53,967 bases of DNA from positions 1-53,967 of the forward strand of contig CBDVCR010000002.1 in the NCBI GenBank assembly GCA_965372535.1. The letters are read 5' to 3'. The DNA is from an uncultured bacterium. GTDB taxonomy: Bacteria; Nitrospirota; Thermodesulfovibrionia; Thermodesulfovibrionales; JdFR-86. Of this stretch, positions 7,345 through 53,967 are shown piece by piece. Position numbers and translations under genes: made by a program. Every line of letters starts with the position of its first letter. Position 1 is the first letter of the stretch. A model generated the notes under the pieces. It was not told where the DNA came from. It was given only the letters and a program-made list of their open reading frames with translations, and made no database searches.

Positions 7345-7690
7345 TCAAGGTGAACTGGTTCACATGGACAAGTTCCGCGAGGGGGAATTACAATGGTCGG
7401 TGGAGCATTAGAAACAGCGTTCTTTGACATGGGCGGAAAAAACAGGGTTCGAGGATTCAAGGAAATAATCCCCCCCGCCCCCCTTTACTAAAGGGGGGAA
7501 GAAACGGCGGACGGGCATGGCAGCCTTGAACACTCTTTGAACAGCCGGGCGGGCCGGGATATTCCGCAAAATCAGGGGGTTGCAAAGGTTTTAAAGGAAA
7601 GGCTCTGAACATATAAAAAAAGAGAGCGTCCTTCGACCTTTCGGCAGGCCCTTCGACAAGCTCAGGACAGGCTCAAGGCTCAGGATGATT
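7345..7690 (+). repeat. mosaic intergenic repeat, family B, copy 1
   Basis: Shares several 30-90-bp modules with 53577-53914, for example CAAGGTGAAC.GGTTCACATGGACAAGTTCCGC and CCTTCGACCTTTCGGCAGGC...CTCAAGGCTCAGGATGATT. The module order differs between copies. Confidence 0.6.
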
Positions 7691-14370: not shown

Positions 14371-15539
14371 CTCTTGAACCTGCCCGCGACGTCAAGGACG
14401 GATTGCGCCACCCTGTCCACCTCCTCGTCAGTCATTGACGGGTAGATGGGAAGGGAGACAATCCTCTTGTACGCCTCATGCGTAACCGGAAAGTCCTCCG
14501 GCTTATACCCGTACGTCAAACGGTAATACGGGTGGATATGGAGAGGTATAAAATGCACCGACGTCCCAATCCCCCGCTCCCGCAGCTCTTCTATGAACCG
14601 GTCTCTGTCTATGGCAAGTGCGTCGAGGTTGAGCTTCAGCACATAGAGGTGCCGGCTGTGCAGGGTGCCGGCGCGCACGGAAGGCGTTTCCGCCTGCGGC
14701 AGGCCCCTGAAGGCGGCGTTGTAGGCGGACGCGATGCGCTCCCGCTTTTCGAGGAGGAAACCGGCCTTCCCGAGCTGGGCGAGTCCCATCGCCGCCGCCA
14801 CGTCAGTCATGTTGTACTTGTAGCCCGGGGCCACAATCTCGTAGTGCCAGTTGCCCTCGGCGGTGTAGCGCTTCCATGCGTCCCTGCTTATGCCGTGCAG
14901 GCTCATTACGCGCATCCGTTCGGCCCATTCCGCGTTGTCCGTTACCGCCATCCCGCCCTCCCCGGTGGTGATGGTCTTTGTGGCGTAGAAGCTGAAGCAG
15001 GTGATGTCGCCTATGGCGCCGATGTTTCTCCCCCGGTATTTTGCGGGCAGCGCATGGGCGGCATCCTCTATGACGCAGAGGCCGTTGTCCTTCGCGACCC
15101 TCAAGATGGAGTCCATGTCGCACGGCTGCCCCCCGTAGTGTACGGGGATTACGGCCTTCACCCTTTCCCCGCTCCCCCTGAGCCTTGCGACGGTCTCCTC
15201 AAGCCCTGAGGCGTCCATGTTAAGGGTATCGGGCTCTATGTCGACAAAGACCGGCCTGGCGCCCTGGTACCGGATTACCTCGGCAGTGGCGGCAAACGTC
15301 ATGGGCGTCGTGACCGCCACGTCCCCTTCCTCCAGCCCTACGGCGTCCAGGGCGAGGTGGAGCGCGGCGGTGCAGGAGTTAAGCGCCACGGCGTGTTTTG
15401 CGCCGACGTAGCCGGCGAACTCCTCCTCGAACCGCTTAACCTTCGGGCCGGTGGTTATCCAGCCCGTGCGGAGGGAGTCCACCACCCCGTCAATCTCGTC
15501 GTCCGTTATGTACGGCTTATGAAAGGGGACGTGTCCCAT
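14367..15539 (-). CDS. DegT/DnrJ/EryC1-family sugar aminotransferase (PglE-like)
   Basis: 'FEEEFAGYVGAKHAVALNSCTAALHLAL' and the PLP-lysine region 'SFYATKTITTGEGG'. 4-nt overlap with the downstream gene. Confidence 0.9.
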   Translation of the reverse strand: MGHVPFHKPYITDDEIDGVVDSLRTGWITTGPKVKRFEEEFAGYVGAKHAVALNSCTAALHLALDAVGLEEGDVAVTTPMTFAATAEVIRYQGARPVFVDIEPDTLNMDASGLEETVARLRGSGERVKAVIPVHYGGQPCDMDSILRVAKDNGLCVIEDAAHALPAKYRGRNIGAIGDITCFSFYATKTITTGEGGMAVTDNAEWAERMRVMSLHGISRDAWKRYTAEGNWHYEIVAPGYKYNMTDVAAAMGLAQLGKAGFLLEKRERIASAYNAAFRGLPQAETPSVRAGTLHSRHLYVLKLNLDALAIDRDRFIEELRERGIGTSVHFIPLHIHPYYRLTYGYKPEDFPVTHEAYKRIVSLPIYPSMTDEEVDRVAQSVLDVAGRFKR

Positions 15540-15572
15540 GCCGTTGCGCCTCCAGGCGTATGCACAATAAAT

Positions 15573-16445
15573 TCATACGGTATAACCGAGTTTTTGCATG
15601 GTTTGGCCGATGTATTTCATGGCTCCGTCAACTCTGCCCTTCGGCAGGGACAGGTAGTTGTTAATACTGGGCTTTATTCCCTTGCGAATCGTGACAATCC
15701 CATCCTCAATGCCCTTGTCATGGTCAAACTTATGATAATCGATTACCGCGGGCTCGCAGGGAATGCCAAGGTAATCAAAAAGGGCGCCGAGTATGCCTTC
15801 CGGTTTTGTAACGAGGTCTTCATAGCGCATCTCAAACGCCGCCCCGGACCTGCATACGCCGGTGCTTTTCATCTTCCCGACCTGCTCCGCCCAGAAATTG
15901 GCGTATCCCGCAAACCTGTCGTCAAAATTATTCCTCGATACGTATTGGTCAGGCACGTGGAAGTGGCGCCTGTAAAGGGAACAGGCAACGTCCAGCCCGT
16001 TTCGGTAGATGAAAACGAATTTCGCTTTTTGCTCGAACAATTCGCTTAGAACATCCACGTAATCGACATGGTCCGGGGTCTTGTCGGCCCAATAGACCTT
16101 ACCTTTTGATTGCGCGTAATTCATAAAGTAATAATCTATGTAATTACGCGTCATCTTAAACACATGGTCCTTCTCAAACCCCATTGATTCCAGCCCTTCC
16201 AGGGCTTCCCTGTTTGAGAGCATCTTCAATAAGTCCACTATGAACTTCGACTCCGGGGGGCAGGCTATCTTGCTGTGGGAGTCAAGCATTCTCCTTAAAA
16301 GCGAAGTGCCCGACCTGTAGCATCCGATTATGAAAATAGGCGGGTTAGGGCTATAATCGGCCCTGCCCTCGAAAACGACTTTTTTCGAGGGCATGAGAAG
16401 CTTGATATTATAATAAAGCTTTTGATATATGTCCCTTATATTCAT
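15573..16445 (-). CDS. sulfotransferase (intact)
   Basis: 5'-PSB loop 'IFIIGCYRSGTSLLRRML' and a 3'-PB-like 'FVFIYRNGLDVACS'. AT-rich. Confidence 0.8.
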   Translation of the reverse strand: MNIRDIYQKLYYNIKLLMPSKKVVFEGRADYSPNPPIFIIGCYRSGTSLLRRMLDSHSKIACPPESKFIVDLLKMLSNREALEGLESMGFEKDHVFKMTRNYIDYYFMNYAQSKGKVYWADKTPDHVDYVDVLSELFEQKAKFVFIYRNGLDVACSLYRRHFHVPDQYVSRNNFDDRFAGYANFWAEQVGKMKSTGVCRSGAAFEMRYEDLVTKPEGILGALFDYLGIPCEPAVIDYHKFDHDKGIEDGIVTIRKGIKPSINNYLSLPKGRVDGAMKYIGQTMQKLGYTV

Positions 16446-16516
16446 TCTGTATTTACCTCAAATTATCATTAGCCGTGAAACCTCGCAATTTTATCACGAT
16501 ATGCATGCTTTTGTTA

Positions 16517-17161
16517 TCAGCAGTCAAGGTTTTTTCTGAACCTATAGCATTCTCTGGTTTCCTTTTCGATGCGCATGCCTGCTTTCTTATAAAATGATAT
16601 TGCTCTCTCGTTACCTTTCATGACCGACAGGCGATAAGTATTGATTCTATTCATGCATAAAATTCCATTGAATTTATTGAGCATATGCAGTGCAATCCTC
16701 TTTCCTTTGAGTTGAGAGTCAACTGCGATGGACAAAAGACTGAAATCATGTTTTGGTAAGCTGCAATTATTTCCAGTGCGCTTCATGCGGGAGCGAAGTG
16801 CGGCTACAACATGAGAAATTCTGTTGAGCATTCCCCTACGTACAATCGCAGACCGTATAAATGCAAGCACAACCCTATAACAGCAAAACAGAAAATTTTT
16901 CCTGAAAAAACGGGACCGGGCAAATTCAATATGTTGCCCCCCAACTATGAACCCTATCATTCGGCCATGCCTGAAAGCCCCAATGCTCAATTTATTGTAT
17001 TCAATCAATTCCTTATAATAACGCTTTATAAGCTCAGTCCCAAGCGCTGTGAGGAAATATTCAGGGAATGCCGCCTGGTGCAACTGTGCGACCTGAAAAG
17101 CATCATGAGTGTCGAGGAAGCTAAACGCAATGGTATCTTTTTGCATTGGCGTGCTCTCCAT
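16517..17161 (-). CDS. GNAT-family N-acetyltransferase
   Basis: Motif A-like 'LLSIAVDSQLKGKRIALHML' and 'NERAISFYKKAGM'. Confidence 0.7.
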   Translation of the reverse strand: MESTPMQKDTIAFSFLDTHDAFQVAQLHQAAFPEYFLTALGTELIKRYYKELIEYNKLSIGAFRHGRMIGFIVGGQHIEFARSRFFRKNFLFCCYRVVLAFIRSAIVRRGMLNRISHVVAALRSRMKRTGNNCSLPKHDFSLLSIAVDSQLKGKRIALHMLNKFNGILCMNRINTYRLSVMKGNERAISFYKKAGMRIEKETRECYRFRKNLDC

Positions 17162-17188
17162 TATTTTCCATTCACTACCATTAGCATT

Positions 17189-18274
17189 TCACCTGGTAAG
17201 AGGGATGTCCGTAATTATATTCTTTCTGTATTTTTTTCGTATGATAAAATCCCATATACCCTTGATATACCCCATGCCGTAGCCGAAATGAATAGTAAAA
17301 AAAACAGAAGGCAACACAAAAAAATATTTTAAGCCTCTCCTGATTGCGATAGAAGATGAAAAAAATATATTAGCGGCAACGTACAGAAACAGTAACAAAA
17401 GAAACGGCCACAGAAATACCTTCCATGCAAACGACAGTATTCCAAGGGTTATCGAGCTCGCCACAAGGGTCGGCGGCATTATCTGCCTGAAAGTAAAAAC
17501 TCCTCTGGTTTTCAAGGCAACTAGCGGCTTGAAGTAGCCGTACTGGAAATACATCTTTCCAAGCTTGGAAATCGTATCCCTCGCATGATAATATGATACG
17601 ATGTCGGGTACAAGGAGGATTTTCCCGCCATTTTTCAGCAACCTCATGTTCAACTCATCGTCCTGGTTTCTTATCATGTCTTCGTCAAATACCCCTATTT
17701 CATTAAAAACCTCCTTCCTGTAACACCCAAAAGGCACGGTATCCACCAGCCTGGGCTTTTCAGAGCCTATCCTATAATAAGCATTGCCCGCGCCGAAAAA
17801 ATGAGAAACAGCCAACGCTATGGACTCGGCTGTATACGTATTGTCTCCAGGCAATATAACCCATAGACCTCCAACATTGTCCACATCATGTTCCTGCAAA
17901 TATTTGACGCATTTTGGAATATAATCTTTATTGTAAATACTGTGGGCGTCAAGCCTGATTATTATTTCGCCTTTGGCATTCTCGATGCCTATATTCAGGG
18001 CCGCTGGCACTGTTTTTTTCGGGTTGTCCATGAGCCTGATGAACGGCCATCTGCCGGAGAACCCCTTGATTTTTTCTCTTGTACCATCGCCGCTCATGCC
18101 ATCCATTACTAAGACTTCAAGTTTGCTCTTGGGATATTCAGTGTTCACAGTTGAGTCCAGACATTTGTCAATGTGCTTCTCTTCATTACGGCATGGAATA
18201 ATAACCGTTATAAAGGGCAGTGCCCCGTCATGCTTGTTTGCAGGTTCACCTGTCTTCATGCAAGTCTTTTGCAT
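17189..18274 (-). CDS. glycosyltransferase family 2 with C-terminal TM helices
   Basis: 'ITVIIPCRNEEKHIDKCLDS', 'VLVMDGMSGDGT', 'IIIRLDAHS'. Confidence 0.85.
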   Translation of the reverse strand: MQKTCMKTGEPANKHDGALPFITVIIPCRNEEKHIDKCLDSTVNTEYPKSKLEVLVMDGMSGDGTREKIKGFSGRWPFIRLMDNPKKTVPAALNIGIENAKGEIIIRLDAHSIYNKDYIPKCVKYLQEHDVDNVGGLWVILPGDNTYTAESIALAVSHFFGAGNAYYRIGSEKPRLVDTVPFGCYRKEVFNEIGVFDEDMIRNQDDELNMRLLKNGGKILLVPDIVSYYHARDTISKLGKMYFQYGYFKPLVALKTRGVFTFRQIMPPTLVASSITLGILSFAWKVFLWPFLLLLFLYVAANIFFSSSIAIRRGLKYFFVLPSVFFTIHFGYGMGYIKGIWDFIIRKKYRKNIITDIPLTR

Positions 18275-18277
18275 ATA

Positions 18278-19201
18278 TCAAATATACACCCTTCCATAAT
18301 TGCGCCTGAGATATTGAATTGTCCTATCGGATATCACAGTTCTCTTTAACCTCTTGAAGCCGCCGAACCCTGCCAGGACGCCTTTTATCGCTGCAATGAA
18401 CTCGCCTTTCCTTATTGAAGCAGCAAGGAGGACAAGACTCCAGAAGCACGTATTTATGACAAAAGGAAGAGCGGGCAAGTATTTATAGTTTATCCAGATT
18501 TTATTTCTTATCGAATAATACATGTATCCGCTTCTTACGCGGTTCAAGGAATTCAAGTGCGGATAGTGTTCAATAAATATATCCGGACAGTAAAGTATGC
18601 TGTAGCCCTTTTCGATTATGCGGTAAGACAGGTCCAGCTCTTCCGCTCCAAAGAACAAATCTTCCTGATACAAGCCACAGTCCTCATAGACTTTTTTTCT
18701 CGCAGCATGCCCTCCGCCCAGATAATAGCTGACATATTGGGACATGTCCACGATATCGGGATTCTTTTTCACTACGGCCCTACGAAAAGGAACTCTCACT
18801 TTCTTTTCATGATGCCCGTCAATATCAACAATTTTAAACGCAATCAACCCTACATCAGGAAATGTATTAAAGACATGAGTTATTTGTTCAATAGAATTAT
18901 CAAACCTGAAAGCGGCATCATCGTCCAATGTTATCAGAATATCACCCTTCGCCTTCTTGATAAGAACGTTCCTGCCGCCCGCAACGCCGAGCGGCTTGCC
19001 GGAGGTTATGCACCTGATTCTGGGGTCGTCGTATTTTCCGGCGACTTCCCCGCAGATGCCATGCCCGGAATTGTCATCGAGCACGATTATTTCAATATTA
19101 CTATACGATTGAACCAGTATGCTGCCCAGGCACCTGAGAATATCCTCGGGGCCTTCATTGGTTGCGACCAGGAAGCTTATCAACGGCTGGTTCGTCTTCA
19201 T
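18278..19201 (-). CDS. glycosyltransferase family 2
   Basis: 'ISFLVATNEGPEDILRCLGSILVQSY', 'IIVLDDNS', 'ILITLDDDA'. Confidence 0.85.
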   Translation of the reverse strand: MKTNQPLISFLVATNEGPEDILRCLGSILVQSYSNIEIIVLDDNSGHGICGEVAGKYDDPRIRCITSGKPLGVAGGRNVLIKKAKGDILITLDDDAAFRFDNSIEQITHVFNTFPDVGLIAFKIVDIDGHHEKKVRVPFRRAVVKKNPDIVDMSQYVSYYLGGGHAARKKVYEDCGLYQEDLFFGAEELDLSYRIIEKGYSILYCPDIFIEHYPHLNSLNRVRSGYMYYSIRNKIWINYKYLPALPFVINTCFWSLVLLAASIRKGEFIAAIKGVLAGFGGFKRLKRTVISDRTIQYLRRNYGRVYI

Positions 19202-20408
19202 TTCCTTCTCCTTTTAATTTATACGACGATATTAACATGCCGATTACGACCCAGAGAAAAGAGTTCGTCCCGAAAGAAAAAAACAAGAGGAATATAACCA
19301 GTAGAATAAACATCTGGTTCCACGGGTTCATGACCTTCAAGACGGCCGGAGTTTTCCTTTCATTAATCAATACCCAGAATGTCGCAAAAATAATAACCAT
19401 GAATAACAGCGCACCTATGACGCCGGAGTCTACGAGGGTTTCGAAGTATGTATTATGAGAATAATGTCCAAGCGCGCTCTGGGAAGTCCTGAGCCCGTAT
19501 CCGATGATAATCTTGTTGTCGAGTGTTTTTTCATAAAGCTCACTCCAAAAAATGGTCCTCGAACCGGAAGGAATGTCAAAAACCCTGATTCTCATGACAT
19601 TGAAGGGATTGACATCAAGCAGAAAAGTTATGGTCACTAACGATATGGAAATGCCGAGGACGGTCTTCGGGATGAAACGCAAGCTCTTTAAATCGAGCCT
19701 GACCAACCTCAGCAAAACCATGAGTATGGAGCTGATGAGGATAACGAAGTATATGGTCCTTGAAAACGCCAGAATCAAAGAGGCCGTCACCAATAAAAGA
19801 CCGCCGTATTTGACTGATTTTCTCATCTCGACCTGCATGCCGCACAGGAGGGAAAGGGTCATGAACAGCGAGAAAAAATTGGCGTCTCCCGGCAGTCCGC
19901 TCAACCTCAGATAGCCGCTCTTGTCAAGCCCGTACCCCAGCCCTCTCCAGAGGTCCGAATCATGAAGGATACTATGTATTTTCAATTGGCCCATGTAATA
20001 AAATATCAGGGATATAATTGCGAACAGGACGCCGATGAGAAAAACGGTCGAGTTTATTTTCCTGAAATCACGCACGGAAAGAGGAATCTTGGCCAACAGC
20101 AGCAATAAAATGAAATTTCTCGCAAATTGCAGATACAAAGTCGTCGCGCTTTTCGGAGTAATGGAAATATACGCACTTGTCCCGCACCAGAGGAAAAATA
20201 TAAAGTACGCAAGTATCGGAGAAATATAGAGGAAGGAAGGGAACCTCCTGATGGAATTGCCCCTGGAAAAATACAATGCAAAGTATATAACACCCATGAC
20301 TATTACGATGTCAGCGGGATCTATCTTTATGCCAATATCAAAATAAAAGCCCTGCAGGTTATACGCTGTAAAAAGAAGAACAACAAAAATAATGGAATTA
20401 TTATTCAT
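19155..20408 (-). CDS. O-antigen polymerase/ligase-family membrane protein (Wzy_C type)
   Basis: About 10 TM helices and 'GHYSHNTYFETLVDSGVIGALLF'. ATGA-type overlap with the upstream gene. Confidence 0.8.
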   Translation of the reverse strand: MNNNSIIFVVLLFTAYNLQGFYFDIGIKIDPADIVIVMGVIYFALYFSRGNSIRRFPSFLYISPILAYFIFFLWCGTSAYISITPKSATTLYLQFARNFILLLLLAKIPLSVRDFRKINSTVFLIGVLFAIISLIFYYMGQLKIHSILHDSDLWRGLGYGLDKSGYLRLSGLPGDANFFSLFMTLSLLCGMQVEMRKSVKYGGLLLVTASLILAFSRTIYFVILISSILMVLLRLVRLDLKSLRFIPKTVLGISISLVTITFLLDVNPFNVMRIRVFDIPSGSRTIFWSELYEKTLDNKIIIGYGLRTSQSALGHYSHNTYFETLVDSGVIGALLFMVIIFATFWVLINERKTPAVLKVMNPWNQMFILLVIFLLFFSFGTNSFLWVVIGMLISSYKLKGEGNEDEPAVDKLPGRNQ

Positions 20409-21461
20409 TTCTTATGTCCCGGCTTACTTTGGCCATAAACCACACGCATTCTCTTCCTGATAAGAAACAGCTTGATCTGAATCCAGAAAAGTTTTCTGTT
20501 ATTCACGTAATGAAACAACCGTTTATAATAACTCCATAATGTACACTTATAATGCATAAGATAAGCATAAGAAACACAAAAAAGCTTATTCCATTTTTTC
20601 GCTTTACTTAAGAACCATTTTTCGTATCCATAGGCCTGAAGACTATGTCCCAGAACTGCCTCAACAGCCACGCCCTGCCATATTGGAAGTTCTCTCTTCC
20701 AGCCCTCCGTTCGCTTAATGTCAGGGGGTTTGTCGAATAACGCGTGTATGCCTTTTTCTTTCCCGCTCACATTAAAAAATGTATTTTCATCGCTTGCTCT
20801 TTGCGCTACAAAGGGAACGTCCAGGAATCTGAGAACATCCTTTATCCTGTCGACAACGGAAAAGCACAAGTCCTCATACCGTACTTCTGTCATCCGGATG
20901 CCGCTAACCTTCTTCATGTCATCAGCCATCATCATGTAATTCATCCAGGTCCTTGCCATGAATACCACGTTGCCTCTGCCCATCTGTTCCTGCACCAAAT
21001 AAGGTGTCTTGAAGCGGAGCATGGAGTTTACAACAGCCCTCGGATCGCGGAAGATATGGATAAATTCAGCCATGGGAAAGAGGTGGAGCAATATCCGATA
21101 GTAATATATCAATGCGCCGTTTTTAATTAGCACAACGCTAAAAGTCCGGTCTTTTAACTTCGAAAAATTCCGGGCGATGCTCTCCATCAAGCTTTTGATA
21201 CCTTTGCCCTTGTTGCCCTCCGCGATAGCATACAACCATTCATCGTCAAATCCAAGGTTGTCTATTTGATAGTCAAGTTTCATTAAGTTAAACAAATCTT
21301 CAGTGCCCATTTTTCTTAAGTTATCGTCGCCCTTGGCTATTAAAAGTTCAGGCAGCCTGAACTCCGGCATCACAAGTGTGTCCGGGGAATACATGGATAG
21401 TTGTCTTGCAAAAAAAAGTAGAACCCGAACGCGAATTATATAGAAGAAACACAAACCTCAA
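20405..21461 (-). pseudogene. sulfotransferase interrupted at a T8 homopolymer (possible phase-variable gene or homopolymer sequencing error)
   Basis: TTG start at 21461, 6 nt after AAGGAGG, gives 'MRFVFLLYNSRSGSTFF' (5'-PSB loop). The frame is lost at T8 (A8 on +, 21410-21417). The rest, including 'IHIFRDPRAVVNS' (3'-PB), continues in ORF 20405..21454. One T fewer would give a continuous 351-aa protein. Confidence 0.75.
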
Positions 21462-21552
21462 CCCTTGCCTCCTTTTACGTTTTAAGAGCAACCCTTGCCT
21501 CCTTTTACGTTTTAAGAGCAACCCTTGCCTCCTTTTACGTTTTAAGAGCAAC
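21459..21552 (-). repeat. perfect tandem repeat, 3.1 x 30 bp
   Basis: The unit on the coding (minus) strand is TGCTCTTAAAACGTAAAAGGAGGCAAGGGT. It spans the wzx stop, an SD and a TTG. Confidence 0.95.
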
Positions 21553-31356: not shown

Positions 31357-31569
31357 TTTAACGCCCTCCTTTATTACGTTAATAAATCATATTATTTTAA
31401 CATAGCTAATATGCTTACAAGAATAAAAAAATGGCAATATGGACAGATTCCGAACACCACAAAAGGTAGAAGGGGAAAAGAGGCAAGGGCCTTCCGGCCT
31501 TTCACCGCCCGGCGCCTTGACATTTCCACTCCCTCTGCATTTTAATATCCATACCGGGCGCCCCCCCAG

Positions 31570-31800
31570 GGGGCTTAATAGGGAATCCCGAAGCCACGGG
31601 CTTTTTTCGTCCGGGTTTGCAGCCGTTTTGTCTGGAGGAAAGGCCGCAAACGCGGTTGAAAAGGGCCAATGGCCCAGACGGGAGCGGTCCCGCCGCTGTA
31701 GCCGGGGACGAAAGCCCATTGACGCCACTGGTCCGTAAGGCCGGGAAGGCGGGGCGAGTAGGACGAACCGGAAGCCAGAAGACCTGCCCGGGGGTCAAAA
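31570..31800 (+). promoter_or_regulatory. cobalamin (B12) riboswitch
   Basis: AATAGGGAA (31577-85), CCCGCCGCTGTA (31689-700), GCCACTG (31724-30), GGGAAGG, and the B12 box AGCCAGAAGACCTGCC (31773-88). Confidence 0.8.
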
Positions 31801-31914
31801 GCCCCTTATTTACAGGGAAGCCTTTGACCGGCTCAGGGCCGATGCCCCGTTTTAGAGGGGGCCGTGCCCCCTCTCGCAAGAAGAGGGAAAGGGGATGAAG
31901 GAAAACAGGGTGCA

Positions 31915-45851: not shown

Positions 45852-46334
45852 CCAGAAGATTACCACAAGGCCGCGGCGCAATACAAGAAAAAGAGAAAAT
45901 ATTTTCGGAAAAACGGGTTGATTTGTATTATAATAGTGCAAGGGTAGGACAGAGTTACCTGCCCTGTGCGTGAAGGGCGGAGAATGTTGATCCAACAAAT
46001 TAGATCTATCGGGAGCCCGCGTAAGAAGTGCGGTGAGCAAGTCTTCCCTCACGAGGGAAGAAAGCCTGAAGGCTTCTTCAGGGCACCCACCTATGTAACA
46101 GGGGGTCTAAATTCTCATGCCTGGCACGGCAGGGCGGGTTTAGGTTTTCATGGGGAGTTCATGGCAGGTTTTCAAATCGAAAATAAATGTGAAATATCCG
46201 AACCGGGGCGCGCGCCCCGTAACGTAAATTTCAGGAAATCACGCCATAAACCCCTCGCCCCCGGAAGCACCTGCTTCCTGACCTGACCTTTCTGTCCTTT
46301 CCCTAAAGACCGTACAGTTGAGGAGGAGCGCCAT

Positions 46335-47894
46335 ATGGAGGCGAAGTATGTAATTGCAGCCATCGGTATCGGTATTGCATTCGGCACCCTGCTTGCCGTG
46401 GTTTACGGCTATTATGTTAAGGCGAAATGGGGAGCGCTGGAGACGCAGAAGGAATCCGTCGTAAAGGATGCGGAGAGGACGGCCTCGGCCATAAAGAAAG
46501 AGGCCGCAATCGAGGCCAAGGACATCGTATACCAGGCCAAGTCGGAGGCCGAAAAGGAGCTTAAGGAAAGGCACAACGAGCTAAGCCAGAACGAGAAGAG
46601 GCTCAGGCACAAGGACGACCTCCTGGAGAAGAAGCTCGAACAGGCCGAAAGAAAGGACAGCGAACTCGGCAGGAAGGAGAAGGAGTTAGGCCAGAAGGAA
46701 AAGGACGTCCAGGAGAAGGAGAGCCATTACGCCCGGCTTATCGGCGAGCAGACCGCCCTGCTTGAGAAGTACTCGGGCATAAGCGCCGATGAGGCCAGGC
46801 AGGAGCTTTTCAGGAGGGTGGAGGAGGACTCCACCTTCGAGGCGGCCAAGCTGGCAAAGAGAATCGAGGACGAGGCGCGGGAGACCGCGGACAAGAAGGC
46901 CAAGGCGATAATCAGCCATTCCATCCAGCGCTACGCCAGCGACTACATAGCCGACGCCACGGTGTCCTCGGTGAGCCTCAAGAGCGATGAGTTGAAGGGG
47001 CGTATTATAGGCAGGGAAGGCCGCAATATCCGGGCGCTCGAGGCGGCCACCGGGGTGGACCTCATCGTGGACGACACGCCGGAGGTGGTCACCATCTCGG
47101 CCTTCGACCCCGTAAGGAGAGAGGTGGCGAGGCTCGCCCTCGAAAAACTGATTGCCGACGGCAGAATTCATCCGGCGAGGATTGAGGAGATAGTTGAGAA
47201 GGTAAAGAGAGAGGTGGACGCCATAATCATCGAGGAAGGGGAAAAGGCGGTCTTCGACCTCGGCCTCGCGGGCGTGCACCCGGAACTCGTTAAAACCCTC
47301 GGGCGGCTCAAGTACAGGACCTCGTACGGGCAGAACGTGCTCCAGCACTCAAGAGAGGTGGCCTACCTCGCCGGCCTGATGGCCGGGGAACTCGGCGTGG
47401 ACATAAGGCTTGCCAAGAGGGCGGGGCTGCTGCACGACCTCGGCAAGGCCGTGGACCACGAGGTTGAAGGCCCGCACCACGAGATAGGCGGGAAGCTGGC
47501 CAAAAAACACGGGGAGAAGGAAGAAGTCGTAAACGCCATAATGGCCCACCACGGCGACGTGGAGGTGGCCACCGTGGAGGCCGCCCTGGTGGCCGCGGCG
47601 GACGCCCTCTCGGCGGCGCGCCCCGGCGTGAGGCGCGAGAGCATAGAGAACTACATAAAGCGGCTTGAAAAACTCGAAGAACTCGCCATGTCCTACGACG
47701 GGGTGGACAAGTGCTACGCCGTCCAGGCCGGAAGGGAACTCAGGCTTATCGTCAAGCCCGACAGCGTAAACGACAACATGTCGTGGAACATCGCAAGGGA
47801 GTTGTCCAAAAAAATAGAGCAGGAAATGACCTATCCCGGGCAGATAAAGGTTACCGTCATCCGGGAGTCCAGGTACGTGGAGTACGCCAAATAG
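46335..47894 (+). CDS. rny: ribonuclease Y
   Basis: N-terminal TM helix, KE-rich coiled coil, KH '[15 protein letters not shown]', HD '[12 protein letters not shown]'. Confidence 0.95.
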
Positions 47895-47900
47895 CGGCGC

Positions 47901-48683
47901 ATGAAGGTCCTTTTCGTCGGCGATATCGTTGCCAGGGCGGGCAGGACCGCCCTTAAGGCCCTCCTGCCGAAAATCAGGGACCGCTACAGGCTCGACGTCG
48001 TCCTGGCAAACGGCGAAAACGCCGCGGGCGGCTTCGGCATCACGGAGAAGGTGGCCTCCGAGCTTTTCGCCATGGGCGTGGAGGTCATCACCACCGGCAA
48101 CCACGTCTGGGACAAGAAAGAGGCCGTTAAATACCTGGACCGGGAAAAGCGCATACTGCGGCCCCTTAACTACCCCCCCGGCGTCCCCGGCATGGGCAGC
48201 ATCGTCCATGAAACCAAAAAGGGGGAGAAATTGGCCGTCCTTAACGTCTCCGGCAGGGTGTTCATGCAGAACTACGACTGCCCCTTCCGGGGCGTCGAGG
48301 CGGAGCTTGAGAAGCTCAAGGGGGTCACGAAAAACATCGTCGTCGATTTCCACGCCGAGGCCACGTCGGAGAAAATCACCTTCGGCTATTTCCTGGACGG
48401 CAAGGTCAGCGCCGTTCTCGGCACGCACACCCATGTGCAGACCGCGGACGAGAAAGTGCTCCCCGGCGGCACGGCCTACATTACCGACGTCGGGATGACA
48501 GGCCCCGCGGACTCCATCATCGGGGTGGAAAAAGAACAGATAATCGAGCGGTTTCTGACCCTGATGCCCCGGAGGTTCGACGCGGCCAAAGGCCCGGCGA
48601 TGCTCAACGCCGTGGTGCTCGACATTGACGGAAAGACCGGCCGCTCCACCGCCATCCACAGGCTCCAGCTTACGCACCCGTAG
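47901..48683 (+). CDS. ymdB: YmdB-family metallophosphoesterase (2',3'-cyclic-nucleotide phosphodiesterase)
   Basis: 'MKVLFVGDIV', 'ANGENAAGGFGIT', 'TTGNHVWD', 'DFHAEATSEK', 'GTHTHVQTADE'. Confidence 0.9.
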   Translation: MKVLFVGDIVARAGRTALKALLPKIRDRYRLDVVLANGENAAGGFGITEKVASELFAMGVEVITTGNHVWDKKEAVKYLDREKRILRPLNYPPGVPGMGSIVHETKKGEKLAVLNVSGRVFMQNYDCPFRGVEAELEKLKGVTKNIVVDFHAEATSEKITFGYFLDGKVSAVLGTHTHVQTADEKVLPGGTAYITDVGMTGPADSIIGVEKEQIIERFLTLMPRRFDAAKGPAMLNAVVLDIDGKTGRSTAIHRLQLTHP

Positions 48684-48973
48684 GGGGGGGGAGGTAGGGG
48701 GTTGCTTCCTGAAACAAGAAAATTAACGGATTAATAAATTATGATAATTTCAAACATAAATTCGCAGCGAGGACTTCTTCCTGAACTTTGCAGGGTCAGA
48801 GGGGTGAAAAAACTGCGGAGTAGCAGTGTAAATCAACAGGGGAACATGGAAGTGGCCCTGTATGCCTGCAGGAAGAGCTATTTATCTTGATAATATTGGA
48901 ATTCATGTGCTAATCTTTTCCATGATAAATAAACAATTTTCCATAAAATTCAGTGCTTATAGGGCTTTTTTGA

Positions 48974-49894
48974 ATGCTTGACCCAGTTGAATTATTTCCA
49001 GAAATTCCCAATTTATATCAATTCCCGAGCGTGCATGCAGGGATGCTATATGATGAAGAACGGGTGGCAAAATATTCAGCAGCTATCAAACAAGTTATAA
49101 AAAAGGGCGATGTTGTGGCAGATATTGGCACAGGAACAGGACTTCTTGCATTTTTATGCTTAAAGGCAGGTGCAAAGAGGGTGCATGCTATCGAACGATC
49201 ATCAGCAATAGATTGGGCCAAACGAATTGCCGACAAGAATGGGTTAAGCGATAGAATTATTTTTCATAAGCAAGATTCGCGAGATTGCGATCTTCCGGAG
49301 AAGGTTAATGTGGTAGTGAGCGAACTTATTGGTCACATTGCTTTTGAGGAGGGAATGGCCGAATCGCTTTTCGACGCGAGGGAAAGGTTCCTTGTGCCAG
49401 GTGGCGTCTTGGTGCCGGAAAAAGTAGATTTAAGAGTGGCACTTGTTGAAGAAAAGGAGGTTTATCCAGAGTGTATAGATTGTTGGCAAGATATAGGAGG
49501 AATTGATTATTCACCTATGCGTGAAGAAGCGGTTAAGGCATGTTATTTGTCCAATTTAAAAGACCGTGATCTTTTGTCAAAACCAAAGACTTTTTTTAGG
49601 GCGGATTTCCAAGCAAGAAGGCCGTTAAATCTAAAAGGAAAACATTCATTTGATGTCTGTCGTGACGGGAAAATAAATGGGATTGCTTTATGGTTTGAAT
49701 CATGTCTTTCTCCTACTGTCACACTTTCTTCAGGTCCTGGGACACGAACGCACTGGAAACAATGCTTTGCGCCGCTAACAGAAGCGATTCATGTAAGTAT
49801 GGGTGATAACGTTTGCGTTAATATCGATATGCAATTACGCACTAAAGAAAATGATTCGTTTCGAATTATTTTTAGCGTTGAAAAGAAAGATTAA
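48974..49894 (+). CDS. protein arginine N-methyltransferase (PRMT)-like SAM-dependent methyltransferase
   Basis: 'HAGMLYDEERVAKY', motif I 'VVADIGTGTGLL', 'AKRVHAIERS', double-E loop 'VVVSELIGHIAFEEGM', THW loop 'THWKQ', plus a full-length beta-barrel region. Confidence 0.85.
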   Translation: MLDPVELFPEIPNLYQFPSVHAGMLYDEERVAKYSAAIKQVIKKGDVVADIGTGTGLLAFLCLKAGAKRVHAIERSSAIDWAKRIADKNGLSDRIIFHKQDSRDCDLPEKVNVVVSELIGHIAFEEGMAESLFDARERFLVPGGVLVPEKVDLRVALVEEKEVYPECIDCWQDIGGIDYSPMREEAVKACYLSNLKDRDLLSKPKTFFRADFQARRPLNLKGKHSFDVCRDGKINGIALWFESCLSPTVTLSSGPGTRTHWKQCFAPLTEAIHVSMGDNVCVNIDMQLRTKENDSFRIIFSVEKKD

Positions 49895-49908
49895 TTCAAA
49901 GGTAAAAA

Positions 49909-51642
49909 ATGCCAAATCCAGAAACATTTGAGGTGTTTGATTTACTCGATAAATACAAAGGTCGCTTAAAAACGATAGGGTTTTTGAAGGGGAGTTCACT
50001 TAAAGATATTGAAGATAAATTAAAAAAGTTAATGGGATTATTTCCAAAAGGCGTAAAGGATAAAGAAGAATCATTGGACTGGCATGAAGCACATGAAATA
50101 GGGCGAGACTTATGGCGCCAATTGATAAGCGCTGCGATAAATAGTATTGATGAAAATTCCAAGGGAAATTCGAAGCTTTTTGAATATCTCGATGACGCAA
50201 CAAAATTTGAAGATTTATTATATGGACTGGACCCATACTATAGAGACCACACATTGCATTCGTTATGGGTTTATTTTTTAGGAGACCAACTGTTAAATAA
50301 TGATTTAAAACATGTTTATGAGCAGCTAAATTGGTACTTATTCAATGATATCAAAAGAGATGAGGAGAAGTATCAATATAAAACAGAATTGGTGAATTTT
50401 TCAAAAATAAAAAAAGAGCTACTTTGTAATGAAGTGAATAAACATAAAGATGCAATTTGGTGTATTATCGCGCTGTGTCATGATCTGGGATATTCTCTTG
50501 CCAAATTAAATAGGCTCAATGCAAGTGTCCAAAAGGTATTAGAATATTACGATGTACCTGACTTCAGGCATGTTGGATATTCGTTAGATATTGAGCACCA
50601 ATACCTTATGTCACAGTTTCTCGAATTGATGTGCATGGATGTACGTATTGAGCCTAGCGAGAAATATGATGACCCAAAAAAAATAACCCGAGGAGCAAAG
50701 AAATGGCTATCTGCTTGGAATGATGCAAACAATGGTAAATATAGCGACGATGAACGTAAGGAAAAAGTAAACAGCCTTTCACAAAGAATCCCAAGAGAGT
50801 TAGAAAATAAAATATCAGTTAAATGCTATAAGGATGACTCAACATACTGGCGATTATGTCGAGCACTAGAGAAGAAGGAACATGGAATATTAAGTGCGTA
50901 TTTAATTTATAAAATTCTTGGCATTTTTGCAGAAAGTTCAGTGCGAGGGCCTGCGGAAGAGTGGGGTCTTGACGATGCGGAAACGCAACGCAATATAATT
51001 AGAGGCGATATTCTTTTTGCAATTGCTCAGCATGGATTCGATTTTGCTCATCTAAATCAGTTAGGTAGTCTCGCTGACCTTCTAATAATTGCTGATGAAT
51101 TAGAGGAATTTACTAGATACGGTAGACAATTGGCATCACGAAAATATACCGCTACGACCGCAAAAACATCAATAGAATTTAGAAATCCCCAAAATAATGA
51201 GGGAATTAAGCCAGGACAGGATATCGAGATAGATATTGCTTATTATTGTAAGCATAAGCAGGAAGAACATTTTCTTGATTTTTTTCGTAGAAAAGCAGAA
51301 AAACGATTATGTAGTATCTATTCCCTTAAGCCAACACGAGAAGAAAAGGCAGAGGAGGAAAAGGATAATTATTGCACCATAACAAGCATTAAAATGAATA
51401 TGAAGTGGGAAGACCCAAAAGATGAGACAAACAAAAAGGAATATTGGTTTAAATTTTCCAGTGATGGCAAACTTTGGGGCGGTTTGCCAGAGTATAAATT
51501 AGACGACAGGGATAGTGAAATGCCGGAAGAAGGATATGAGCTAAAATCTTATGATGATGAACTCCGAGTTTATTATGATGGAAAAGAGATAAAATTAAAA
51601 AAATGGTTAGGATTAGATAAGTCGGATGTTGAAAAAGATTAA
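49909..51642 (+). CDS. HD-domain-like protein of unknown function (577 aa)
   Basis: 'RDHTLHSLWVYFLG' ... 'IIALCHDLGYSL' ... 'LLIIADELEEF' give H-HD-D spacing. I recognised no other domain. Confidence 0.7.
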   Translation: MPNPETFEVFDLLDKYKGRLKTIGFLKGSSLKDIEDKLKKLMGLFPKGVKDKEESLDWHEAHEIGRDLWRQLISAAINSIDENSKGNSKLFEYLDDATKFEDLLYGLDPYYRDHTLHSLWVYFLGDQLLNNDLKHVYEQLNWYLFNDIKRDEEKYQYKTELVNFSKIKKELLCNEVNKHKDAIWCIIALCHDLGYSLAKLNRLNASVQKVLEYYDVPDFRHVGYSLDIEHQYLMSQFLELMCMDVRIEPSEKYDDPKKITRGAKKWLSAWNDANNGKYSDDERKEKVNSLSQRIPRELENKISVKCYKDDSTYWRLCRALEKKEHGILSAYLIYKILGIFAESSVRGPAEEWGLDDAETQRNIIRGDILFAIAQHGFDFAHLNQLGSLADLLIIADELEEFTRYGRQLASRKYTATTAKTSIEFRNPQNNEGIKPGQDIEIDIAYYCKHKQEEHFLDFFRRKAEKRLCSIYSLKPTREEKAEEEKDNYCTITSIKMNMKWEDPKDETNKKEYWFKFSSDGKLWGGLPEYKLDDRDSEMPEEGYELKSYDDELRVYYDGKEIKLKKWLGLDKSDVEKD

Positions 51643-51660
51643 ACTTAAGAATTTTTTACT

Positions 51661-52047
51661 ATGAAGAAAATAGAAAAGAAACCATATGGATTTGAGCTGA
51701 TAATAGATTTACATAAATGTGACGTGTCTACATTTAACAGAGAAAGCCTTGACGCTTATTTTGCAAAACTGTGCAAGGCAATTAAGATGCAAAAATGCGA
51801 ACGATATTTCTGGGATGATGTTGGATTGCCAGAAGAGCAGAAGCAGACATCTCCTCATACAAAAGGGTCTTCGGCAGTACAGTTTATCCTTACCAGTTCT
51901 ATTGTTATTCATACGTTGGATTTATTAGAAGCTGTTTATATAAATATTTTTTCATGTAAAAAATACAATAAGGAGCTGGCAGTTAAGATTACAAAAGAGT
52001 GGTTTGTTGCAAAGGAAGTTAGAACGCATTTCATTGAGAGGATTTAG
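51661..52047 (+). CDS. SpeH-type (class 1) S-adenosylmethionine decarboxylase-like pyruvoyl enzyme, divergent
   Basis: Aligns by eye with prokaryotic AdoMetDC. 'YGFELIIDLHKC', 'GSSAVQFILTSSIVIHT' (canonical ...ISESHLTIHT) and 'INIFSCKKY' (canonical DLFTCG). Confidence 0.8.
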   Translation: MKKIEKKPYGFELIIDLHKCDVSTFNRESLDAYFAKLCKAIKMQKCERYFWDDVGLPEEQKQTSPHTKGSSAVQFILTSSIVIHTLDLLEAVYINIFSCKKYNKELAVKITKEWFVAKEVRTHFIERI

Positions 52048-52048
52048 C

Positions 52049-53413
52049 ATGTTGCTGACCAGACGAGAGCTTGATATCCCTGCAGTAAAAACTAATAAAT
52101 ACTTATTGAATTATTTTCGAGAAGAAGTTGAAAAAAATATTGAAGCTGATGAAATACCAGTACGATTTGCGGTAACACAAAGTGATTCGAATGTAAACAA
52201 ATGCGAATTAGGCATTCTTAAAAGAGCAAACCGTTCATATGCACATCGGCTGTCATCTATCTTTGATTTTACTCCGAGAGAAATCGAAAACACCAAAAAC
52301 TTTAATGCGGTGATGATAGTCCCCACTGGTATCGGAGCGGAGATTGGAGGTCATGCCGGAGACGCTACTCCAGCAGCAAGATTGTTGGCTTCAGTTTGTG
52401 ATACGCTGGTAACCCATCCGAATGTGGTAAATGCTTCTGACTTAAACGAATTGCCAGCTAATGGGTTATATGTTGAAGGTAATACGCTGACACAATTGTT
52501 GATGGGCACGGTAGGTTTACAGAAGGTTAGAGCAAATCGAATACTTATGGTTATCGATAAACACCCGGATAGTAGAATTTCTGATTTTTCTATCAATGCT
52601 GTTTCTGCTGCTCGTAGTACATTGGGAATTGATTGTCAAGTAATTGAGATGGATTCGCCGATACTAATGCGTCCAGATTATTCTACTTCGGGTACTGCAG
52701 TGGGCAGAATCGAAGGCATTGAGCGGCTTTGCGAAGTGCTTAGCGCTCATAGAGCAGAATATGATGCTATAGCTCTGACTTCAATTATTGATGTGTCAAA
52801 GGAACTCATGATGGATTATTTTCAAAGTTCTGGAGATATGGTTAATCCGTGGGGTGGCGTGGAGGCAATGTTGACGCATGCGATAACAATGTTATTTGGG
52901 GTGCCAGCAGCACATTCCCCTATGTTAGAATCGACAGACGTATTAGAGATGCAACTTGGCATAGTAGATCCACGCATGTCTGCTGAAGCAATATCTACCA
53001 GTTTTCTTCACTGCATATTAAAGGGGCTTCACCAAAGTCCTCGAATTATCACTGACGGCCTATTATTTACGCATCCGAGTGTAATAACTGCAGCTGATAT
53101 ATCATGTATGGTGATACCAGATGGATGTGTGGGTTTACCGACACTTGCAGCGCTGGAGCAAGGAATTCCCGTAATAGCAGTAAAAGAGAATAAAAGCCGA
53201 ATGAAGAATGATCTTAAGGCACTTCCATTTAGGCCTGGCAAACTCTTCTTTGCAGAGAATTATCTCGAAGCAGTAGGTATAATGGTCGCCCTCAAAGCTG
53301 GAGTATCTTTAACTTCTGTACGTAGACCGTTAAGTCCAACAAAAGTTTCTACAGAAAAACGAGATAAAGACATGGCCAACCCAGAGATAGCTCAGATAAA
53401 ACTAAAAGCGTAA
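52049..53413 (+). CDS. DUF3326-like protein of unknown function (family name recalled from memory) with an ~85-aa N-terminal extension
   Basis: Start reset to ATG 52049 (GAGAGGA SD, 1 nt after the upstream stop). Conserved-looking core 'IVPTGIGAEIGGHAGDATPAARLLA...THPNVVNAS'. Confidence 0.65.
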   Translation: MLLTRRELDIPAVKTNKYLLNYFREEVEKNIEADEIPVRFAVTQSDSNVNKCELGILKRANRSYAHRLSSIFDFTPREIENTKNFNAVMIVPTGIGAEIGGHAGDATPAARLLASVCDTLVTHPNVVNASDLNELPANGLYVEGNTLTQLLMGTVGLQKVRANRILMVIDKHPDSRISDFSINAVSAARSTLGIDCQVIEMDSPILMRPDYSTSGTAVGRIEGIERLCEVLSAHRAEYDAIALTSIIDVSKELMMDYFQSSGDMVNPWGGVEAMLTHAITMLFGVPAAHSPMLESTDVLEMQLGIVDPRMSAEAISTSFLHCILKGLHQSPRIITDGLLFTHPSVITAADISCMVIPDGCVGLPTLAALEQGIPVIAVKENKSRMKNDLKALPFRPGKLFFAENYLEAVGIMVALKAGVSLTSVRRPLSPTKVSTEKRDKDMANPEIAQIKLKA

Positions 53414-53576
53414 TAAATAGTGACAGCGGAAAAATAAATAGCCTACATTAATCCGCAAGTCAAAATTCATTATGAAGGCAACAGTAGTAGGCGTTAGCCG
53501 CAAAAACCTGCCTGAGCGTCACAGGGCACGACTTTGTAACCCGCCCTCCGCGGGTTTCGTGAGAAAAAGGAACCTG

Positions 53577-53914
53577 TCAAGGTGAACGGGTTCACATGGA
53601 CAAGTTCCGCCCGGGGGAATTACAATGGGCGTGGAGCATTAAGGGAGCAGGTTACAAACCTGCTCCCGCAAAGTGCGGAGCGTTCTTTGACATAGGAGTG
53701 AGACCGGATTCAAGGATTCAAGGAATAATCCCCCCACGCCCCCCTTTACAAAAGGGTGGGACAAAGGAGTACATCCTTCGACCTTTCGGCAGGCTCAAGG
53801 CTCAGGATGATTCGTAATGAAGGCCGGGCGGCTTTGAACACCTCTTGAACGCCAAAACAGGCCGGAATGTTCCGAAAAATCAGGGGGTTATAAAGGTTTT
53901 AAAGGAAATGCTCT
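53577..53914 (+). repeat. mosaic intergenic repeat, family B, copy 2
   Basis: Modules shared with 7345-7690 in a different order. Includes the CCCCCCTTTAC.AAAGGG hairpin module also seen in family A. Confidence 0.6.
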
Positions 53915-53967
53915 TCCACCGCCCTACAGATAGATTGGACACTGAATAAGCAAGCATAATAGCTTAG

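Follow-up and report, generated by a model that had tools for sequence, protein, structure and literature searches.

A horizontally acquired four-gene cassette downstream of ymdB carries a recurring decarboxylase-DUF3326 pair

Background

What does a run of four AT-rich genes do behind ymdB in a bacterial contig of much higher G+C content, and do these genes belong together? The locus lies near the right end of the 53,967-nt stretch of contig CBDVCR010000002.1 (GenBank assembly GCA_965372535.1) that was analysed here (hereafter the window) and that originates from an uncultured bacterium of the phylum Nitrospirota. Its four genes, all on the + strand, are g1 (48974-49894), encoding a 306-aa type-I protein arginine methyltransferase (PRMT)-like enzyme dependent on S-adenosylmethionine (SAM); g2 (49909-51642), encoding a 577-aa protein from a family without annotation, whose putative metal ligands form an HD-like pattern; g3 (51661-52047), encoding a predicted 128-aa pyruvoyl-dependent, SpeDC-like decarboxylase with the fold of SAM decarboxylase (AdoMetDC); and g4 (52049-53413), encoding a 454-aa long-form DUF3326 protein. 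An initial annotation, made from the letters of the DNA, had considered this gene set to be without described counterpart and had offered three speculative readings, namely (a) synthesis of a methylated guanidino or polyamine-type small molecule, (b) a protein-arginine modification module and (c) a defence or stress island.

Here we report that the cassette belongs to a widespread group in which a decarboxylase gene and a DUF3326 gene form the invariant core. Together, g3 and g4 would most likely make a polyamine-type amine. We judge the chances to be about even that a polyamine-type biosynthetic core with exchangeable accessory modules acts here in phage-host conflict. We infer the antiviral role of the cassette, its core chemistry and the roles of g1 and g2 from the lines of evidence set out below.

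Results and discussion

A strain-variable site downstream of ymdB

The G+C (GC) content in sliding windows of 300 nt drops from 0.59-0.66 through rny (46335-47894) and ymdB (47901-48683, stop codon TAG 48681-48683), the left flank, to 0.29-0.45 from ~48650 to ~53450 and then returns to ~0.52. The island at 48684-53470 has a GC content of 0.381 vs 0.566 for positions 1-48683, equivalent to z = -4.0 against 439 windows of equal length on the contig (mean 0.563, standard deviation 0.045, minimum 0.427). At third codon positions (GC3) the values are 0.32, 0.30, 0.33 and 0.31 for g1 to g4 vs 0.80 for rny and 0.85 for ymdB; they are mostly 0.7-0.86 in the other true-frame open reading frames (ORFs) of at least 200 aa on the contig. 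The AT-rich island, initially proposed from spot counts of single lines, is confirmed by all three measures, which rule out an artefact of these counts.

The borders were defined with two sister contigs, L090 and L091, chosen via proteins at least 90% identical to RNase Y and YmdB of the window (L plus a number designates the comparison loci throughout). L090 matches the window at 98% DNA identity over 10.7 kb, ending at 48689 inside a run of nine G residues (48683-48691), the first of which is the last base of the ymdB stop codon. L091 matches at 93% identity up to 48713, where homology stops. The left junction of the variable region at 48683-48713 consists of the G run and ~22 nt common to one sister contig only. 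Past ymdB, the three near-identical backbones hold three different low-GC cargos: the four genes in the window, three unannotated ORFs of 169, 192 and 241 aa in L090 (10784-13309), and two unannotated ORFs (215 and 244 aa) with an RHH-PIN pair behind them in L091 (2903-5000). Because the sister contigs lose homology at this point and carry low-GC cargo of their own, the site after ymdB is a strain-variable hotspot, in which the four genes represent one cargo among several alternatives. The four-gene segment is a foreign, horizontally acquired cassette.

On the right, the AT-rich tail between the g4 stop and the flank (53414-53545) is the probable junction. A block of ~55 nt within it (53490-53545) is found again at the right-hand end of the cargo in L091 (blastn 82%, window 53488-53546 vs L091 4873-4931), and the GC content recovers at this block in both contigs. 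The cassette lacks the features of classical integrative islands. No integrase or transposase family was matched among the four island proteins in Pfam and NCBIfam, the tRNA scan found none anywhere in the window, and no direct repeat joining the left and right island edges was found, as the initial annotation had already described. The cargo ORFs of L090 and L091, for which PADLOC returned no match, are candidates for unknown hotspot cargo.

Recurrence of the gene set

Linkage of the genes was followed in two scans. A one-genome-per-species scan with a DUF3326 alignment gave 80 best loci of 51-88% identity, distributed over Planctomycetota, Omnitrophota, Nitrospirota, Zixibacteria, Elusimicrobia, Chloroflexota, Bacillota, Bdellovibrionota, Alphaproteobacteria and others; a metagenome scan with a g2 alignment also gave 80 loci. 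ORFs in the fetched loci are simple longest-ORF calls that were subsequently clustered.

The gene directly upstream of DUF3326 was counted in 81 loci, which represent more than 15 phyla and comprise 78 of the 80 loci of the genome scan, L001-L003 and the window. It encodes an AdoMetDC-like protein in 46 of these loci and, in 22, an NspC-like pyridoxal phosphate (PLP) decarboxylase nearest to carboxynorspermidine decarboxylase (TIGR01047, 7e-88). Altogether, DUF3326 is the partner gene of an AdoMetDC-like decarboxylase in at least 100 loci. A third type of partner was found in ten viral contigs (L177-L186, GC content 0.22-0.33), where a pyruvoyl protein resembling PS_Dcarbxylase (5.5e-17) is encoded downstream of DUF3326 and stands in for the AdoMetDC-like gene. 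The pairing of three unrelated decarboxylase families with the same partner argues strongly that DUF3326 proteins need a decarboxylation step.

Seen from g2, a DUF3326 gene follows downstream in 53 of the 54 loci with enough downstream sequence, and an AdoMetDC-like gene is present in 56 of 65 g2-homologue loci. Most of the other g2 loci have a gap of ~1.15 kb, with an NspC-like gene inside it where ORFs were called. The full order PRMT-g2-decarboxylase-DUF3326 recurs in L084 and L094, and PRMT, cyclase-TPR, decarboxylase and DUF3326 genes occur together in L001, L002, L225 and L227. Since g2 is so strictly linked to DUF3326 and the exact order recurs, the four genes are not chance neighbours; the linkage together with the orders in L084/L094, L225 and L227 rules out a chance juxtaposition, and the synteny proposed initially as a check on the gene set was found. 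The operon-like layout was reproduced as well, with the four ORFs, the ymdB stop, the G run and intergenic gaps of 14 (g1-g2), 18 (g2-g3) and 1 nt (g3-g4). Both this tight spacing and the recurrence of the same order lead us to regard the four genes as one functional unit.

The decarboxylase g3

The initial description of g3 as SpeH-like holds at the level of the fold family (Pfam AdoMet_dc, PF02675, 2.1e-14). Residues S79, H84 and C99 are shared by all of 29 family members, and the positions of pyruvoyl Ser, His (+5) and Cys (+20) equal those of S63/H68/C83 in the T. maritima enzyme, which serve self-processing and catalysis. The predicted self-processing site of g3 is T78/S79, with H84 and C99. 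In PHROGs, g3 matched only a PHROG annotated as SAM decarboxylase.

Three findings speak against this substrate. First, g3 reads IHTLDL and is devoid of the Pro of the H-T-W-P motif, which is completely conserved in true AdoMetDC (PMC10407285). Second, its score against the SpeH equivalog TIGR03330 is 24.7 bits vs a cutoff of 75.65. Third, the g3 family profile matched the validated SpeDC domain of an Omnitrophica protein at 97% (hhalign, E 1e-10) vs 19% for the true AdoMetDC domain of the same protein. Because of the missing Pro, the sub-cutoff SpeH score and the better SpeDC profile match, SAM decarboxylase was rejected as a candidate, and g3 is probably a self-processing pyruvoyl decarboxylase of the neofunctionalised SpeD branch. 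The statement that two members of the gene set belong to SAM-using families is correct for g1; g3 probably does not use SAM despite its AdoMet_dc fold.

The closest characterised enzymes are SpeDC and SpeDA (Li et al., JBC 2023, PMC10407285), with which g3 shares the Ser/His/Cys triad and the absence of the AdoMetDC Pro. Three of the four SpeDC-diagnostic residues are present in g3 (Gln at -5, Thr at -1, Tyr at +14), as mapped on an optical character recognition copy of Fig. S5 of that paper, which aligns validated fusion enzymes; the exception is a Thr at +6 where SpeDC has Phe after the His. A second difference is an insert of ~10 residues before the core of g3. The genes for g3 and for SpeDC/SpeDA occur in the same phyla and are prone to horizontal gene transfer (HGT); SpeDC-type genes spread by HGT within polyamine clusters (PMC10407285). 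The ancestor of g3 would lie in the SpeD-derived ornithine/arginine decarboxylase branch. No match to the spermidine synthase family (SpeE, aminopropyltransferase) was found among the four island proteins.

The DUF3326 protein g4 and the core chemistry

The assignment of g4 as DUF3326-like was fully borne out, with a Pfam match (PF11805) of 3.9e-90 spanning model positions 1-336 of 337. Ahead of this core lies an extra N-terminal domain of ~85 aa. The family search gave more than 6400 homologues; among the best 120 listed, identity is 63-88% across phyla. The start codon ATG at 52049 agrees with the invariant M1 of 25 homologues, making the alternative TTG at 52004 less likely. PADLOC and PHROGs contained no match to g4, and sequence and profile searches against the PDB gave no usable solved relative.

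A precedent for the chemistry comes from the pavettamine pathway of Burkholderia s.l., reported in a June 2026 preprint (bioRxiv 10.64898/2026.06.12.731819). There, pavA, which encodes an NspC-like domain, and pavB, which encodes a DUF3326 protein, are both required for bis(5-aminopentyl)amine, i.e. N-(5-aminopentyl)pentane-1,5-diamine, and the PavA/PavB homologues of B. pseudomallei gave the same intermediates in E. coli. As in the window, a DUF3326 protein is thus coupled to a decarboxylase, and it is the pair that is required for the symmetric triamine. The two systems differ in several respects. The Pav decarboxylase is a PLP-dependent NspC-like domain fused to a Rieske domain and followed by a JmjC hydroxylase, whereas the window has a small pyruvoyl SpeDC-like protein, a g4 with the extra N-terminal domain, PRMT-like and HD-like partners and a defence-type island context.

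The CANSDH/CANSDC (NspC) pathway provides a second comparison, being likewise a two-gene, two-step route to a triamine, and an NspC-like decarboxylase takes the g3 position in the 22 loci mentioned above. However, DUF3326 is not homologous to CANSDH, and the NspC-like partner stays below the NspC equivalog cutoff (294.7 vs 409).

Further indications come from the neighbourhood of the pair. In 12-13 marine alphaproteobacterial loci it adjoins GSP_synth, a polyamine ligase family. The arrangement in these marine alphaproteobacterial metagenome-assembled genomes (MAGs) is a yjf-like cluster, which encodes a glutathionylspermidine-synthase-family protein, DUF1190 and a small protein of the membrane, with the pair behind it (L023, L037, L050, L051, L053, L065-L067, L070, L078, L079, L082).

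Because of the PavAB precedent, the triple replacement of the decarboxylase, the SpeDC-like nature of g3 and the GSP_synth adjacency, the most economical interpretation is that the g3-g4 core would build a polyamine-type amine in two steps. Their order could be either of two. A basic amino acid could be decarboxylated to a diamine and diamines then condensed to a triamine, as in PavA/PavB, or condensation could come first and the carboxy-intermediate be decarboxylated afterwards, as in CANSDH/CANSDC. Reading (a) of the initial annotation fits this core insofar as it envisaged a polyamine-type small molecule.

The claim of no described counterpart needs to be divided. Searches of the literature on DUF3326, PF11805, polyamine plus defence, NspC plus PtuA and PRMT plus phage defence returned no description of the cassette, and no described system with the full gene set was found in the libraries. 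What is already known is that a DUF3326 protein paired with an NspC-like decarboxylase makes a triamine (PavAB); for the four-gene cassette we found no earlier description.

Taken by itself, this chemistry would also suit a purely metabolic island in which g3 makes a diamine and g4 a homospermidine- or spermidine-like triamine, while tailoring or regulation of this product falls to g1 and g2, which might N-methylate a guanidino-polyamine and hydrolyse a phospho-intermediate. There would be no immune role, and the island context would reflect mobility. We regard this as possible, if on balance doubtful. It agrees with the strong conservation of the pair, i.e. the 51-88% identity within the best 80 genome loci, with GSP_synth next to it in marine alphaproteobacteria, with the spread of SpeDC-type genes by HGT in polyamine clusters and with PavAB as biochemical precedent. 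The observations that it leaves unexplained are those on the genomic context below.

If the core chemistry is right, DUF3326 and its decarboxylase would constitute a widespread polyamine route that is missing from current pathway maps. It would reach across thousands of DUF3326 homologues in more than 15 bacterial phyla, a MAG labelled as archaeon (Thermoplasmata) and phages, and could explain polyamine synthesis in lineages without known enzymes. The recruitment of three unrelated decarboxylases to one partner would be a clean, testable case of non-orthologous replacement.

The accessory genes g1 and g2

That g1 encodes a full-length PRMT-like methyltransferase was corroborated by matches to Pfam PRMT_C (3e-19, residues 153-300) and class I methyltransferase models and, in a phmmer search against the PDB, to yeast Hmt1/PRMT1 (5e-37, residues 13-296). 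Its sequence contains motif I (VADIGTGTGLL), the double-E loop SELIGHIAFEEGM (E117, E126), the THW loop (THWKQ) and the C-terminal beta-barrel with dimerisation arm of type-I PRMTs. Judged by these motifs, g1 is a complete type-I PRMT core and the only SAM enzyme of the four. At least 311 bacterial homologues of ~306 aa exist. The full-length alignment, the double-E and THW loops and the C-terminal barrel link g1 to eukaryotic type-I PRMT1/Hmt1; unlike these, g1 is bacterial, is without an N-terminal extension and resides in a mobile cassette beside amine-synthesis genes. A further difference could lie in the substrate. The enzyme would methylate a guanidino group, and a small guanidino compound and protein arginine are equally possible carriers of it.

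The second protein, g2, had no match in Pfam, NCBIfam, PADLOC or PHROGs. It has 710 homologues and belongs to a wider superfamily of 431 clusters at 50% identity. The label HD, given initially from a motif, draws mainly on a residue pattern: H114, H117, H191-D192, H325-G326, H375 and D396 are invariant in 25 close members, and equivalents are kept in 54 distant members (E, H, H, HD, HG, H, D and R invariant). This arrangement contains the H...HD...D ligands of the HD superfamily and is the pattern of a metal-dependent HD-like hydrolase. Profile and fold comparisons added little to it. Four of the 54 distant members weakly matched Pfam HD (PF01966; best E 5.4e-4), Foldseek of the confident AlphaFold2 model (pTM 0.81, with a beta-rich C-terminal domain) against the PDB returned nothing with E < 0.27, sequence and profile searches of the PDB gave nothing usable, and hhalign found no match between the g2 family and either the HD domain of RNase Y from the window or an HDOD protein.

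The genes at the position of g1 and g2 vary among cassettes. In the 42 g2 loci with enough upstream sequence, a small unannotated protein is encoded upstream of g2 in 24 and a PRMT in 2. We propose that g1 and g2 constitute an exchangeable accessory module that might act as sensor, regulator, effector or tailoring unit; PRMT plus cyclase-TPR, the small protein plus g2, or PtuAB take its position in other lineages.

The strength of the PRMT signature raises a rival interpretation close to reading (b), in which g1, as the main activity of a modification or toxin-like module, methylates arginines of a host or phage protein and the other genes are unrelated passengers. Every signature motif of PRMTs is retained in g1, and L226 has PRMT and cyclase-TPR genes without the decarboxylase-DUF3326 pair. 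Against it, PRMT is a minority partner of g2, as the 2 of 42 loci show, and the 14/18/1-nt spacing and recurring order argue for one functional unit. We consider it very improbable, while protein-arginine modification as such is neither supported nor excluded by our analysis.

L226 (4307-12201) deserves mention in its own right: the PRMT-like protein and a 476-aa cyclase-TPR-family protein are followed by ResIII and a 593-aa unknown protein, and the region adjoins an N6_N4 methylase and a Prim-Pol gene. The combination of PRMT and cyclase-TPR may be a module of its own.

Defence and phage context

Directly upstream of the decarboxylase-DUF3326 pair, PtuA (PADLOC 1.4e-47) and PtuB are encoded in ~18 loci from many phyla, co-oriented with the pair and at a spacing of a few nucleotides. 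L122 (3438-10871) presents in one string a small protein, a g2 homologue, PtuA, PtuB, an NspC-like protein and DUF3326, demonstrating that g2-type and Septu-type modules can be combined; L124 (2250-6064) has the same order up to PtuA, where the contig ends. Sister cassettes with PtuAB directly upstream of the pair resemble Septu and retron-Septu (Retron-Eco7/Ec78), in which retrons likewise co-opt PtuAB beside an accessory module. The window cassette itself has PRMT-like and HD-like genes at the PtuAB position; the likeness is one of gene order, and neither the PtuA ATPase nor the PtuB HNH nuclease of Septu is encoded in the window.

In ~8 loci (including L014, L021, L027, L034, L038, L044 and L056) a gene for 4-HFC-P synthase (MfnB-like, 1e-37), sometimes together with an unannotated 394-aa protein, adjoins the PtuAB-type DUF3326 cassettes upstream of PtuA. 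This enzyme makes a furan aldehyde in methanofuran synthesis, and its adjacency may hint at an aldehyde substrate for the core.

A census of Pfam families among 123 neighbours of g2-type cassettes was led by ResIII, Eco57I, AAA_15/21, TaqI_C, N6_Mtase and Methylase_S, with SWI2_SNF2, MmeI_Mtase, RadC, HSDR_N and SLFN_AlbA_2 as further top families. As a control, 132 neighbours of DUF3326 loci that lack g2 were counted in the same way. PtuA/PtuB, 4-HFC-P synthase, ABC transporters, TPR proteins and transposases came first there, and the top 25 families included no restriction-modification (R-M) family and neither SWI2_SNF2 nor SLFN_AlbA_2. Cassettes of the g2 or PRMT type individually adjoin type IIG and type I R-M systems, Mrr, a dCTP-deaminase-like gene, Schlafen/AlbA, an SNF2 helicase, Lipase/PLD, PIF1 and Abi_2, or lie in an integrase island. 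By proximity to defence genes and strain-variable presence, the operational marks of a defence context, the cassette qualifies, though in qualitative terms only, and reading (c) of the initial annotation fits this context.

It is here that the purely metabolic island falls short: the tight co-orientation of PtuAB with the pair in ~18 loci across phyla, the R-M genes around g2-type cassettes but not around the control set, and the swapping of the accessory position among a nuclease pair, cyclase-TPR and HD-like proteins all remain unexplained by it. The ordinary neighbourhoods of the non-g2 loci are in its favour.

The pair also occurs in viral sequences. DUF3326 is encoded on 53 IMG/VR contigs, with an AdoMetDC-like gene directly upstream in 38 of them. 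Most phage copies begin near residue 85 of g4 and are hence without the N-terminal domain. In the viral contigs L191, L196, L202, L209 and L214, AdoMetDC-like and short-form DUF3326 genes stand beside genes for the terminase large subunit and portal, and some pairs lie between the two. Although host DNA may occur among IMG/VR contigs, such terminase and portal genes mark several of these contigs as probable phage. No conserved accessory gene was found beside the pair in the viral contigs, and DUF3326 relatives were absent from GenBank phages and PLSDB plasmids, IMG/VR contigs being the only source. Phages are known to carry polyamine enzymes, SpeD-derived decarboxylases among them, and the pair alone in phages resembles such auxiliary genes, as a purely metabolic island would predict.

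The packaging-module position next to terminase and portal genes might alternatively point to a modification-restriction system. In this case, DNA or RNA, and not a free amine, would receive an aminoalkyl or amino-carboxyalkyl group from the core. Unmodified nucleic acid would be attacked by the partner nucleases (HD-like g2, HNH PtuB), and the bare core in phages would serve to modify the phage DNA and let it escape. Nuclease-type or possibly nuclease-type partners and the R-M-rich surroundings are compatible with it. On the other hand, the sole experimental datum for DUF3326 is a free triamine, neither g3 nor g4 matched a domain for DNA binding, glycosylase or transferase activity, nuclease activity of g2 is conjecture, and GSP_synth adjacency points to free polyamines. 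We hold this system to be improbable.

Because the cassette type travels in R-M-rich islands and phages carry the bare core, we infer a role in phage-host conflict, where the polyamine-type core and its accessory module would probably act as a defence system. The cassette would remodel or deplete the polyamine or amino-acid pool, or its amine product would control the accessory proteins. A more far-reaching version, which we entertain only tentatively and think rather unlikely, sees the decarboxylase-DUF3326 pair as the metabolic heart of widespread, unrecognised antiviral systems that use polyamine chemistry. In one variant, an effector would rapidly convert or deplete a diamine or amino-acid pool needed for phage packaging and translation, as a bacterial counterpart of the interferon-induced SAT1. 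In the other, which follows a guard logic, a constitutive amine would restrain PtuAB, g2 or PRMT/cyclase effectors until infection cuts the supply. In either variant, the bare pair would serve phages as a counter-measure or as a polyamine source of their own.

Several points weigh against a polyamine-based conflict system. The proposed phage-resistance role of the cassette genes is drawn from genomic context. PADLOC was blank for g2 to g4, and its sole match to g1 was mad2, via the methyltransferase domain. The neighbour census is a qualitative internal control and not a genome-wide enrichment statistic; outside g2-type cassettes it frequently placed the pair among ordinary genes. The bare pair in phages, without accessory genes, is in keeping with a role in plain metabolism. 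The contig stops 550 nt past g4, leaving the right-hand context unseen, and the HD assignment of g2 is weak. As to the chemistry, the likeness of PavB to g4 is shared membership in the DUF3326 family. Foldseek of the g4 AlphaFold2 model (pLDDT 77.6) yielded weak flavodoxin/lumazine-synthase-like matches in the PDB (E ~1e-3, TMq 0.22) and nothing in BFVD; because the fold gave no informative structural match, the reaction of DUF3326 is deduced solely from context and one preprint.

If the conflict interpretation is right, the cassette would represent the first bacterial immune-type system built on polyamine metabolism, would add a new accessory module for Septu nucleases and would provide a functional setting for the rare bacterial PRMT homologues.

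Other features of the window

A block 5' of g1 (48866-48969, +) aligns with the region 5' of the L001 PRMT gene, whose product is 78% identical to g1; no alignment was obtained with more distant cassettes. It is a probable cassette promoter or leader and contains a sigma-70-like TTGATA (48887-48892) and TAATCT (48911-48916) separated by an 18-nt spacer. We call this probable promoter at 48887-48916 putative because a consensus scan of the region for promoters and terminators scored no better than shuffled controls.

Outside the cassette, a 6S RNA gene (45953-46144, +; Rfam 86.8 bits) lies just upstream of rny, and a cobalamin riboswitch (102.5 bits) was found at 31539-31805 (+). A second stretch of lower GC content (0.38-0.45) at ~15500-21500 on the - strand is a surface-glycan cluster with genes for two sulfotransferases, a GNAT protein, two GT2 glycosyltransferases, a Wzy-like protein and a flippase, and is probably another horizontally variable region.

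Finally, the mosaic repeat noted initially at the right edge, with a single other copy, was recovered at 53577-53915; its only other match, at 7345-7690, consists of blocks of 72-100% identity and lies in the intergenic region that separates pdxJ (6123-6839) from a TPR gene (8124-9461). Candidate identities for this repeat are a miniature inverted-repeat transposable element, a repetitive extragenic palindromic (REP)-like element or a regulatory element.

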